The notes under the pieces: model-generated
What the model was told of the DNA's origin: nothing
What the model saw: only the letters and a program-made list of their open reading frames with translations
Databases searched by the model: none
Part shown: in pieces, positions 9,675 to 9,790 of the stretch
Layout of the letters: every line of letters begins with the position of its first letter
Position numbering within the stretch: position 1 is the first letter of the stretch
Made by a program: the position numbers and the translations under genes
Origin: Escherichia coli
Lineage (GTDB): Bacteria > Pseudomonadota > Gammaproteobacteria > Enterobacterales > Enterobacteriaceae
Length of the DNA stretch: 64,000 bases
Assembly: GCF_046105845.1 (NCBI RefSeq)
Contig: NZ_CP151004.1
Direction: 5' to 3' (one strand)

Positions 9675-9700
9675 GGAAGCGAAACTTGACTTCATATTGT

Positions 9701-9736
9701 GATGTCATACTATTGATGTCATAAAGTGAAGTCATA
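9701..9736 (+). promoter_or_regulatory. Three direct repeats (GATGTCATA / GATGTCATA / GAAGTCATA) upstream of the toxin-antitoxin pair; candidate autoregulatory operator overlapping the promoter
   Basis: Repeats at 9701, 9715 and 9728 (13-14 bp period), downstream of TTGACT at 9686-9691 and upstream of the AAGGA SD/ATG 9747. Confidence 0.45.
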
Positions 9737-9790
9737 AGGACATGCCATGAGAACCCAGGTACAGGCTTTACGGAAGAAACAAAAAACACA

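Follow-up and report, generated by a model that had tools for sequence, protein, structure and literature searches.

A putative four-site HicB operator interleaved with the promoter of a hicAB toxin-antitoxin operon in Escherichia coli

In the class-4 hicAB type II toxin-antitoxin systems, HicB carries a C-terminal ribbon-helix-helix (RHH) domain (Gerdes 2024, PMC10865869), and RHH-type HicB proteins bind palindromic operators that overlap the promoter (PMC11594946; PMC10865869). In Yersinia pestis, a single promoter upstream of hicA3 is flanked by the inverted-repeat operators BS1 and BS2. Both are bound by YpHicB3, and BS2, which overlaps the -10 hexamer, is the main operator (PMC11594946). 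The HicB of Burkholderia pseudomallei (BpsHicB) is a tetramer with exposed RHH dimers that binds a palindrome over the predicted -10 hexamer, and its DNA binding is modulated by HicA (PMC11594946). Repression by HicB of E. coli K-12 is exerted via an operator (hicO at P2) and is relieved by excess HicA (PMC11594946; PMC10865869). Outside the HicB family, one dimer of the RHH protein omega is bound per heptad repeat, and omega is thought to polymerise cooperatively along heptad arrays (PMC4803016).

A 64-kb window, the whole stretch of E. coli DNA that was analysed, contains a further locus of this type. The segment 9686-9740 was read directly from the window as TTGACTTCATATTGTGATGTCATACTATTGATGTCATAAAGTGAAGTCATAAGGA. 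Sequence and comparative evidence suggest, with a probability of about 0.8, that this segment is the sigma-70 promoter of a class-4 hicAB operon interleaved with a four-site HicB operator. Repression by an antitoxin of its own promoter is an ordinary arrangement for toxin-antitoxin operons. A literature search found no binding or transcription experiment for this HicAB subfamily. The features of the locus are collected in Table 1.

Table 1. Coordinates of the promoter, putative operator sites, genes, and terminator of the hicAB locus in the 64-kb window
Feature	Position	Strand	Basis or remark
Predicted -35 hexamer TTGACT	9686..9691	+	Promoter scan
Operator site 1 (putative) TGACTTCA	9687..9694	+	Overlaps -35; exact match to family consensus
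Operator site 2 (putative) TGATGTCA	9700..9707	+	Within promoter spacer; 13 bp from site 1
Predicted -10 hexamer TACTAT	9708..9713	+	Promoter scan; centre of symmetry of the array
Operator site 3 (putative) TGATGTCA	9714..9721	+	Directly after -10; covers expected transcription start
Operator site 4 (putative) TGAAGTCA	9727..9734	+	5' leader, just ahead of Shine-Dalgarno sequence
Shine-Dalgarno-like AAGGA for hicA	9736..9740	+	Direct reading; 6 nt before ATG at 9747
hicA toxin gene, frameshifted	9747..10021	+	ORF list; Pfam HicA_toxin; tblastn
hicA frameshift site, A6 run	9781..9786	+	One A fewer than the A7 of intact alleles (alignments)
hicB antitoxin/repressor gene (repressor role inferred)	10018..10377	+	119 aa; Pfam HicB; AlphaFold2
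Intrinsic terminator after hicB	10380..10419	+	Hairpin 10380-10414, U run 10415-10419

The initial annotation described three copies of a GAWGTCATA-type repeat at a spacing of 13-14 bp. Exactly three matches to TGAWGTCATA are present in the 64-kb window (9700-9709, 9714-9723, and 9727-9736), with match-to-match spacings of 14 and 13 bp, as described. The expectation for 64 kb is 0.21 matches (sd 0.43), and three matches were reached by 0 of 100 shuffles. The array itself holds four copies rather than three. The additional copy, TGACTTCA(TA) at 9687-9696, shares bases with the -35 hexamer TTGACT, and the spacing of the four sites is 13/14/13 bp. The array had also been placed between TTGACT and the Shine-Dalgarno sequence; both of these elements are present at the ends of the segment, but the first site overlaps the -35 hexamer.

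Each unit of the array has an 8-bp palindromic core, TGA-NN-TCA. In sites 2 and 3, one central base each departs from the family consensus, and site 4 is the reverse complement of site 1. The array is dyad-symmetric, with arms at 9687-9707 and 9714-9734 and with the predicted -10 hexamer as its centre. Since sites 1 and 4 are reverse complements and the arms are dyad-symmetric, the array is not simply a direct repeat; the repeats noted at the outset exist, but their units are palindromic. The four TGANNTCA octamers within 48 bp are the sole such cluster in the 64-kb window, where this octamer occurs 19 times in total and is unclustered outside the array. The largest cluster obtained across 300 shuffles contained two octamers, and four were never reached. 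Exact TGACTTCA or TGAAGTCA occurs once more in the window.

The promoter scan predicted TTGACT and TACTAT, separated by a 16-bp spacer, with a moderate score of 9 of 12 matches. Transcription of hicAB would be expected to start at about 9720 from this promoter. The same scan returned no second sigma-70-like promoter inside hicA and no terminator in the interval from the yhhJ stop (9674) to the array. The predicted RNA fold of the terminator after hicB has an energy of -21.2 kcal/mol (z = -5.5). An Rfam scan of 9300-10600 gave no match at E <= 1.

The gene order is hicA and then hicB, and an equal gene pair is annotated by RefSeq in other E. coli genomes. The hicB gene starts with GTG, where other E. 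coli genomes have ATG, and this codon overlaps the hicA stop codon (GTGA) to give a 4-bp gene overlap. HicB scores 57.6 bits against Pfam PF05534. The AlphaFold2 model of HicB (pLDDT 87.9) contains a domain of four strands and one helix followed by a strand and two helices; the modelled strands are at residues 9-12, 15-22, 27-32, and 40-43, the helix is at 46-67, and an extended segment leads to helices 87-99 and 104-118. The top Foldseek matches are BpsHicB (6g26), YpHicB3 (4p7d and 4p78), and EcHicB (6hpb), and they also include the RHH proteins AtaR (6gts) and Arc (1bdv) and the RHH domain of NikA. As modelled, HicB is a HicB-type N-terminal domain joined to a C-terminal RHH domain. The best PDB sequence match to the C-terminus is Arc repressor (Arc residues 5-43), and T80, T82, and R84 of HicB align with Q9, N11, and R13 of Arc, which contact bases in that protein. 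Residues K79, T80, F81, T82, L83, and R84 are invariant or nearly so among 38 HicB homologues.

HicA scores 38.0-38.2 bits against Pfam PF07927 (cut-off 27). The AlphaFold2 model of HicA (pLDDT 89.9) has two extra N-terminal helices ahead of an alpha-beta-beta-beta-alpha arrangement, and in a fold search BpsHicA and EcHicA were matched with TM scores of 0.63 and 0.67, neither of which is statistically significant. The canonical catalytic histidine of HicA is His23 or His24 in EcHicA and BpsHicA and lies in a Gly-Ser-(x)-His motif. In the subfamily alignment, G49-S50-R51 is followed by Cys or Val in nine of nine members, and the invariant histidines of these nine are H64 and H67, within FHRPHP. 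By offset reasoning, Gly-Ser-Arg may stand in place of the usual Gly-Ser-His in this subfamily. PDB sequence searches with HicA and with a HicA profile returned no solved homologue, a search with HicB returned no solved HicB homologue, and NCBIfam holds no model that matches either protein. The link between the two proteins and the known HicA and HicB structures is therefore drawn from Pfam and from fold comparison.

The hicA gene of the window is disrupted. The reading frame that begins at its ATG stops at 9843-9845, after 32 codons, and the HicA domain resumes in the frame of the 9791-10021 ORF. An intact 91-aa hicA coding sequence (for example WP_001260301) is found in other E. coli genomes, and the lineage with three operator sites has an annotated HicA of 76 aa. 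The only complete genome with the same hicA allele as the window (NZ_CP062811.1) has it annotated as a frameshifted pseudogene. HicB is therefore likely to be the only protein made from hicAB here, hicA being frameshifted. Of the features of class-4 hicAB, the linked hicA-hicB order, a HicA domain (a family with a dsRBD-like fold), and an N-terminal HicB fold (partial RNase H) with a C-terminal RHH domain were found, and an intact toxin reading frame is lacking in the window. The window locus is thus a decayed copy, and its assignment to the hicAB family still stands.

At least 12 other lineages carry the core TGAC(T/G)TCA or its complement ahead of their homologous hicAB operons, and the octamer accompanies hicAB across Enterobacterales, in one Pasteurellaceae genome, and on two other enterobacterial replicons. 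For 10 lineage representatives, 20 exact copies of TGACTTCA or TGAAGTCA were counted in 1,000 nt upstream of hicA and three in 42,476 nt of flanking sequence, which correspond to 20 versus 0.07 per kb (Poisson P about 4e-42). When up to one mismatch is allowed, the counts in these representatives are 32 upstream and 24 in the flanks. The motif is found with the module beside yhhJ, flhA, ccdB, nikR, and other genes. At 50-80% protein divergence and between unrelated flanks, octamer and geometry are kept, whereas the spacers between sites diverge freely.

The spacing within a pair of sites is 13 bp in every lineage with a recognisable pair. In almost all of the lineages examined, the proximal pair is found at positions of about -33 and -20 relative to the ATG. 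It begins at the last T of the -10 hexamer, and in nearly all of these lineages a TAnnnT hexamer ends at or overlaps the first T of the pair. Another site contains the -35 hexamer, and TTGAC(T/G) is found inside an operator site at the equivalent -35 position in 12 other lineages. The spacing between the pairs is 14 bp in Escherichia, Citrobacter, and the Klebsiella orphan locus, and 26-29 bp in Trabulsiella, Buttiauxella, Serratia, Photorhabdus, and a Salmonella plasmid. The counterpart of site 2 is TGCTGTCA in Citrobacter sedlakii and TGCTATCA at the Klebsiella orphan hicB locus, and the variant TGACGTCA occurs in Buttiauxella and Salmonella. The initial annotation had proposed autoregulation by the antitoxin through the RHH tail of HicB. 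This proposal is supported on comparative evidence, and the decisive point is that the octamer, in a constant promoter geometry, travels with hicAB whatever the neighbouring genes.

The putative operator sites follow hicB rather than hicA, judging from the loci in which hicA is missing. At a Klebsiella locus without hicA, TTGACTTCA-n5-TGCTATCA-n6-TGATTTCA directly precedes hicB, and all four sites are kept in Buttiauxella gaviniae, in which hicA is deleted. The RHH strand is constant as K(T/S)FTLRYP wherever the site is TGAC(T/G)TCA. A paralogue on an Enterobacter plasmid, 36% identical and with the strand KVSTRLTP, has TGGTATCA-n5-TGATACCA instead, with the 13-bp spacing kept; this paralogue is the single contrast in which an altered site accompanies an altered RHH strand. 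The orphan hicB of Pantoea varia has no such sites upstream, which counts against the operator model.

In the proposed mechanism, each 8-bp palindrome TGA(C/A/T)(T/G)TCA would be the dock for one RHH dimer, whose two-stranded beta-ribbon (T80, T82, and R84) would insert into the major groove. The sites would be used in pairs with a spacing of 13 bp, with sites 1 and 2 forming operator O1 and sites 3 and 4 forming O2. If HicB resembles the RHH-type proteins of Y. pestis and B. pseudomallei, its tetramers would carry two RHH dimers. With a centre-to-centre spacing of 13 bp, adjacent dimers would be rotated around the helix by about 85 degrees relative to each other, and we know of no verified exact precedent for this arrangement. 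Occupancy of O1 would cover the -35 hexamer and the spacer, and O2 would extend from the end of the -10 hexamer over the start site as far as the Shine-Dalgarno sequence. With O1 and O2 both occupied, RNA polymerase would be excluded and hicAB repressed. Where the toxin is intact, an excess of HicA would loosen HicB from the DNA, as has been described in other HicAB systems. In this window, with hicA frameshifted, the circuit is probably a simple negative autoregulation of HicB.

Of 5,426 complete E. coli genomes, about 2,060 (~38%) carry the module, between yhhJ and an aldolase gene. The promoter allele has four sites in 1,269 genomes and three in about 790-810, one 14-bp unit being absent in about 38% of the complete E. 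coli genomes that bear the module. The three-site allele keeps a site in the -35 hexamer, a plausible -10 hexamer (TAAAGT, 16-bp spacer), and a site that abuts this -10. The common variant of the 57-bp promoter of the window (946 genomes) has unchanged cores and differs by a T-to-C change in the spacer that separates site 1 from site 2. The other alleles sampled in E. coli mostly vary outside the cores as well (in the -10 hexamer and the Shine-Dalgarno sequence), and in a single sampled allele site 2 reads TGACGTCA, still inside the family consensus. The polymorphism between three and four units could conceivably retune the promoter.

Three other explanations of the array were weighed against the operator model. 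The dyad symmetry could mean that the array acts mainly as RNA, with DNA binding by HicB secondary or absent. Transcripts reading through from yhhJ would then fold 9687-9734 into a hairpin beside the Shine-Dalgarno sequence and thereby stabilise the upstream mRNA or insulate hicA translation. The predicted fold of 9676-9760 has an energy of -26.6 kcal/mol (z = -4.15; 0 of 200 shuffles as good), and the scan shows no terminator that would halt such transcripts ahead of the array. A hairpin is also predicted in Pantoea sp. (z = -4.7), where the -35 region pairs with the Shine-Dalgarno sequence and the ATG, and in Serratia (z = -3.6), with weaker ones in Citrobacter, Enterobacter, and Buttiauxella. 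However, sites that share one orientation do not form a hairpin in Trabulsiella (z = +1.0), Photorhabdus (z = +1.0), or Pasteurellaceae (z = -0.5), and the octamer and its spacing are conserved even there. Hairpin potential would be a by-product of palindromic sites, and a transcript from the predicted promoter starts inside the 3' arm and is unable to form the structure. A hairpin as the primary function was rejected on its lack of conservation where the sites share one orientation, and an explanation based mainly on RNA is improbable. The array was also considered as an intrinsic terminator or structured RNA and rejected; the hairpin is followed by UAAGGACAUGCC with no U tract, and Rfam gave no match. 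As a secondary role, the palindromic array could conceivably double as a translation-insulating RNA hairpin on yhhJ read-through transcripts.

A host transcription factor unrelated to HicB could instead bind the octamers and place hicAB under the control of a cellular signal. Precedents are the CRP-S/Sxy site at P1 of E. coli K-12 hicAB and the predicted CRP-S site that overlaps the B. pseudomallei operator (PMC11594946), and a CRP half-site, TGTGA, is present in the array at 9698-9702. The second half-site is missing (ACTAT against the expected TCACA), and a CRP site at this position was rejected on this reading of the sequence. The motif moreover travels with the module as far as Pasteurellaceae and to two further enterobacterial replicons, and in the one contrast found, an altered RHH strand of HicB comes with an altered site sequence. 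A regulon would leave more copies than the single one elsewhere in the 64-kb window and the three in 42 kb of flanks, and control by a host factor is very improbable. Finally, a 13-14-bp unit might have been duplicated locally, or multiplied by slippage, in AT-rich intergenic DNA, and the repeats would then have no function. In favour of this reading, the 10-mers at sites 2 and 3 are identical and lie 14 bp apart, and one unit is polymorphic in E. coli; site 2 or site 3 could have arisen by recent duplication instead of being a selected site. For the array as a whole, slippage is scarcely credible against the conservation of octamer and geometry while the inter-site spacers drift, and against the promoter elements and abutting site that the three-site allele retains.

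Loss of hicA has occurred many times, independently, with hicB retained and, in most of these lineages, the promoter and the putative operator sites kept as well. Besides the frameshift of the window, the losses in E. coli include a stop at codon 2 in 767 genomes; two further lineages have nonsense mutations, Pantoea gossypiicola has a frameshift, and B. gaviniae and Klebsiella have deletions. It is conceivable, although unlikely, that the toxin-antitoxin pair of this locus is turning into a HicB regulator that stands alone and represses itself. Such a regulator would imply a toxin-independent function of HicB, for which the neutralisation of other HicA toxins and a role as an anti-addiction or anti-phage factor are candidates. 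The repeated decay of the toxin with a surviving repressor also provides a clean natural data set on module degeneration.

If the operator model is correct, an uncharacterised and widespread enterobacterial HicAB clade gains the operator consensus TGAC(T/G)TCA, a constant architecture (pairs 13 bp apart, a site in the -35 hexamer, and a pair abutting the -10 hexamer), and the candidate DNA-reading residues T80, T82, and R84. With the consensus, architecture, and residues defined, binding, stoichiometry, and HicA-dependent derepression would become open to direct tests. The understanding of toxin-antitoxin autoregulation itself is unchanged by the result.

The HicA3-HicB3 system of Y. pestis resembles this locus in the order of hicA and hicB and in the union of an N-terminal HicB fold with a C-terminal RHH domain, and O1 and O2 are proposed as the counterparts of its two operators. 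By description, the Y. pestis operators are inverted repeats of 15 bp, whereas each operator here would consist of two 8-bp palindromes 13 bp apart. The hicA3-hicB3 gap is 174 bp, in contrast to the 4-bp overlap here. HMMER finds no similarity between the proteins here and the PDB chains of the Y. pestis system, and structural alignment gives about 15% identity. Among known structures, that of B. pseudomallei HicAB (PDB 6g26 and 6g1n) fits the HicB model best (6g26_B, probability 1.00), with an identity of 9-11%. One palindromic region has been reported in that system, compared with four sites here, and BpsHicA has the canonical catalytic His24 where offset reasoning places Gly-Ser-Arg in the present subfamily.

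The K-12 hicAB operon, which is a different locus from the one between yhhJ and the aldolase gene, shares the toxin family and the gene order. Its HicB has a helix-turn-helix domain (class 3) in place of the RHH domain (class 4), and it is transcribed from two promoters, of which P2 serves the antitoxin only, whereas the scan found no second sigma-70-like promoter inside hicA here.

Among other RHH repressors, P22 Arc, MetJ with its met-boxes, and pSM19035 omega recognise short sites of 7-8 bp, each contacted by the beta-ribbon of one RHH dimer. Their sites form arrays over the promoter in direct or inverted orientation, as is the case here. The MetJ met-box is AGACGTCT, and its central GACGTC is common to the TGACGTCA variant. 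Arc, MetJ, and omega are single-domain proteins whose sites lie 7, 8, or 11 bp apart so that the dimers touch. At the present locus the spacing is 13 bp, and the predicted RHH domain is tethered to the tetramerisation and toxin-binding domain of HicB; cooperativity, if any, would probably be conveyed via these N-terminal domains.

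The segment upstream of hicA was read from the window as TTGACTTCATATTGTGATGTCATACTATTGATGTCATAAAGTGAAGTCATAAGGA (9686–9740), and its features are collected in the table. TGAWGTCATA matches only three times in the 64 kb, at 9700, 9714, and 9727, where 0.21 matches are expected and three were reached in none of 100 shuffles. The three repeat copies reported in the initial annotation are real, but a repeat finder and a direct count located a fourth, TGACTTCA(TA), at 9687; this copy overlaps the TTGACT hexamer, downstream of which all of the repeats had been placed. The array spacing is therefore 13/14/13 bp, in agreement with the 13–14 bp originally estimated. 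Every unit contains an 8-bp palindromic core, TGA-NN-TCA, by both methods. The octamers of site 1 (TGACTTCA) and site 4 (TGAAGTCA) are reverse complements of each other, and the entire array is an imperfect 48-bp palindrome with arms at 9687–9707 and 9714–9734. Octamers of the form TGANNTCA occur 19 times in the window with sites 1–4 as the sole cluster, and the largest cluster in any shuffle is two. The predicted –10 hexamer coincides with the center of symmetry of the array.

Features of the hicAB region (window coordinates)
Feature	Position	Strand	Remarks
Array and predicted promoter	9686–9740	+	between the yhhJ stop (9674) and the ATG at 9747
Predicted –35, TTGACT	9686–9691	+	promoter scan, sigma-70-like
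Site 1	9687–9694		candidate HicB operator octamer
Site 2	9700–9707		candidate HicB operator octamer
Predicted –10, TACTAT	9708–9713	+	promoter scan; 16-bp spacer from –35
Site 3	9714–9721		candidate HicB operator octamer
Site 4	9727–9734		candidate HicB operator octamer
hicA	9747–10021	+	HicA-family toxin gene; Pfam 38 bits (cut-off 27); broken in the window
hicB	10018–10377	+	119 aa; Pfam HicB 57.6 bits; weak Arc match
Terminator hairpin	10380–10419		strong; –21.2 kcal/mol, z = –5.5; 3' of hicB
Class II aldolase gene	10427–11287	–	convergent with hicB

The C-terminus of HicB aligns to the Arc repressor, with T80, T82, and R84 placed on Q9, N11, and R13 of Arc, the residues with which Arc reads DNA bases. 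The AlphaFold2 model of HicB (pLDDT 87.9) consists of four strands and a long helix, followed by an extended segment and two helices. Among PDB entries, the model is most similar to the HicB structures from B. pseudomallei, Y. pestis, and E. coli K-12, and it also matches AtaR, Arc, and NikA as isolated ribbon-helix-helix (RHH) domains; flexible linkage of the two domains accounts for the weak E-values. In the classification of hicAB modules by Gerdes (PMC10865869), the module of the window is class 4. The gene order across 5815–13085 is rbbA-yhhJ, hicAB, and then convergent genes for the class II aldolase, an HPr-family protein, and an FGGY-family carbohydrate kinase; yhhJ encodes an ABC-transporter permease. 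The terminator between hicB and the aldolase gene is probably used by both.

Conserved, nonrandom 8-bp palindromes are interleaved with a predicted promoter upstream of an RHH-protein gene, and they accompany hicB across genera. The sequence comparisons support the antitoxin autoregulation initially proposed, and we estimate a probability of about 0.8 that sites 1–4 constitute a HicB operator that represses its own hicAB promoter. One HicB RHH dimer would occupy each octamer, and tetramers would form through the N-terminal domain by analogy with Y. pestis and B. pseudomallei, whose RHH HicB proteins are tetramers of this kind (PMC11594946). HicB on the –35/spacer sites and on the pair that spans the start site between the –10 and the Shine–Dalgarno sequence would exclude RNA polymerase. 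Binding would be weakened by excess HicA, as in other HicAB systems (PMC11594946, PMC10865869). With the toxin gene broken in the window, negative autoregulation of HicB should be all that remains of the circuit.

Related loci were collected using a HicB protein scan of one genome per species, which provided 26 loci; further, more distant paralogues came from a search of plasmids. TGACTTCA or its complement appears upstream of hicA in Citrobacter sedlakii, Enterobacter, two Trabulsiella species, three Photorhabdus species, Serratia, five Pantoea genomes, and one Pasteurellaceae genome. Two copies each of TGACGTCA and TGACTTCA are present in three Buttiauxella species, four copies of TGACGTCA on a Salmonella IncFII plasmid, and alternating TGACACCA and TGACGTCA on a large E. 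coli STEC replicon. For ten lineage representatives, the upstream regions of hicA (1,000 nt) contain 20 exact octamers, whereas the flanks (42,476 nt) contain 3 (Poisson P ~4e-42).

The geometry of the sites is conserved as well as their sequence. The within-pair spacing is exactly 13 bp across the lineages with paired sites. The proximal pair is positioned near –33 and –20 relative to the ATG and either starts on or overlaps the final T of a TAnnnT –10 hexamer, and the –35 hexamer TTGAC(T/G) is embedded in a further site. In Escherichia, Citrobacter, and one Klebsiella locus, this –35 site has its partner 13 bp downstream, which creates the contiguous 13/14/13 array; in most other lineages the partner is 13 bp upstream, giving two promoter-flanking pairs (13/26–29/13). 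Pantoea and the Pasteurellaceae genome possess the proximal pair only, arranged as an inverted repeat. The asymmetric center (CT or AG) switches orientation freely among lineages, as would follow from recognition chiefly of the outer TGA and TCA arms by a symmetric dimer.

Across 38 homologues with identities down to 54%, little or no variation is seen in the RHH strand K79-T80-F81-T82-L83-R84, and K(S/R)(F/L)TLR is found in both paralogues that use TGACGTCA. A plasmid paralogue of 36% identity has the strand KVSTRLTP and, upstream, TGGTATCA-n5-TGATACCA, which keeps the 13-bp spacing but differs in sequence. Site sequence and RHH strand differ together in this single contrast, which is suggestive only. 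The sites also accompany hicB rather than hicA. In a Klebsiella locus (L037) without hicA, TTGACTTCA-n5-TGCTATCA-n6-TGATTTCA is retained immediately before hicB, and all four sites are retained in Buttiauxella gaviniae (L021), where hicA is almost completely deleted.

The segment 9687–9734 also folds as a stable 20-bp RNA hairpin (–26.6 kcal/mol, z = –4.15), which could matter on yhhJ read-through transcripts, and an analogous hairpin in Pantoea sp. WMus005 pairs the –35 region with the Shine–Dalgarno sequence and start codon (z = –4.7). A role as RNA is nevertheless unlikely: the hairpin lacks a U tract and an Rfam match, could form only on transcripts reading through from upstream, and is absent from Trabulsiella and Photorhabdus (z = +1), where the sites share one orientation. 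It is treated here as a by-product of the palindromic sites. That the octamers are sites for a host transcription factor is very unlikely, given that the motif accompanies the hicAB module, whose adjoining genes vary between loci, and is rare elsewhere. An origin of the repeats as nonfunctional slippage products is highly improbable and is contradicted by the conservation of the sites across genera.

Intact hicA elsewhere in E. coli is a 91-aa coding sequence from the equivalent of 9747. The A run at 9781–9786 is A6 in the window versus A7 in intact alleles, and the frame from the ATG consequently ends after 32 codons; translational coupling to hicB would be lost as well. Among 5,426 complete E. 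coli genomes, a single one has this allele, annotated in RefSeq as a frameshifted pseudogene, and a homopolymer sequencing error may be its source. The hicB start codon (10018–10020) is GTG in the window; the other Escherichia loci examined (e.g., L003 and L004) have ATG. Characterized HicA toxins contain Gly-Ser-(x)-His with the catalytic histidine, whereas in every member of the subfamily here Gly-Ser-Arg precedes Cys, Val, or Arg at residues 49–53 (9791–10021 frame). The motif F-H-R-P-H-P-S-P (residues 63–70) is invariant, and an N-terminal helical extension of ~29 residues is present. The subfamily may have a relocated or different active site.

The module occurs in ~2,060 of the 5,426 genomes (~38%, matching most of the 901-bp hicAB segment), which identifies a variable region beside a conserved transporter operon. 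The four-site promoter is found in 1,269 genomes; 323 are identical to the window over 9684–9740 and 946 differ by one base, a T-to-C change between sites 1 and 2 in the alleles inspected. A three-site form (~790–810 genomes) lacks one 14-bp unit including the –10 TACTAT. It retains TTGACT with a 16-bp spacer, and its TAAAGT is directly adjacent to TGAAGTCA; the design is thus preserved. The exact three-site 68-nt allele with TAA directly after the hicA ATG and an unchanged hicB is present in 767 genomes; in the example inspected (L032; NZ_CP048326.1, 701–800) a 76-aa HicA is annotated from a CTG codon. Sixteen genomes combine the three-site promoter with intact hicA. In strain OkiPb01711 (L031, NZ_AP042673.1), tandem 13-nt units of ACATGCCATGAGA replace the hicA start from about position 100. 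The unit covers the Shine–Dalgarno-to-ATG region, no hicA is annotated at this locus, and the copies are either a real amplification or an assembly artifact. In strain CS5L (NZ_CP158311.1), IS1, with annotated transposase genes, lies within the hicAB region (match of 1,679 bp versus 902). Across the related loci, hicA has been lost repeatedly and independently with retention of hicB: by nonsense codons in L005 (codon 26) and Photorhabdus heterorhabditis (L011, codon 4), a frameshift in Pantoea gossypiicola (L018), substitutions at otherwise invariant residues in Trabulsiella guamensis (L009), the deletion in L021, and complete absence in Pantoea varia (L022), as in L037.

The closest characterized systems are YpHicA3B3 and BpsHicAB; the divergence of their proteins from those of the window is too great for linkage by sequence searches. 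YpHicA3B3 has two inverted-repeat operators around a single promoter, the dominant one over the –10, and BpsHicAB has a palindrome over the –10 (PMC11594946). The operators of the window are composed of 8-bp sub-sites spaced 13 bp apart; no description of such operators was found in a literature search of sources other than the primary YpHicB3 and BpsHicB reports. For omega, Arc, and MetJ, RHH dimers are likewise known to bind short sites arranged in arrays (PMC4803016). The repeat array is confirmed and its interpretation as an operator is supported; the regulatory logic would be the same as that of YpHicA3B3 and BpsHicAB.
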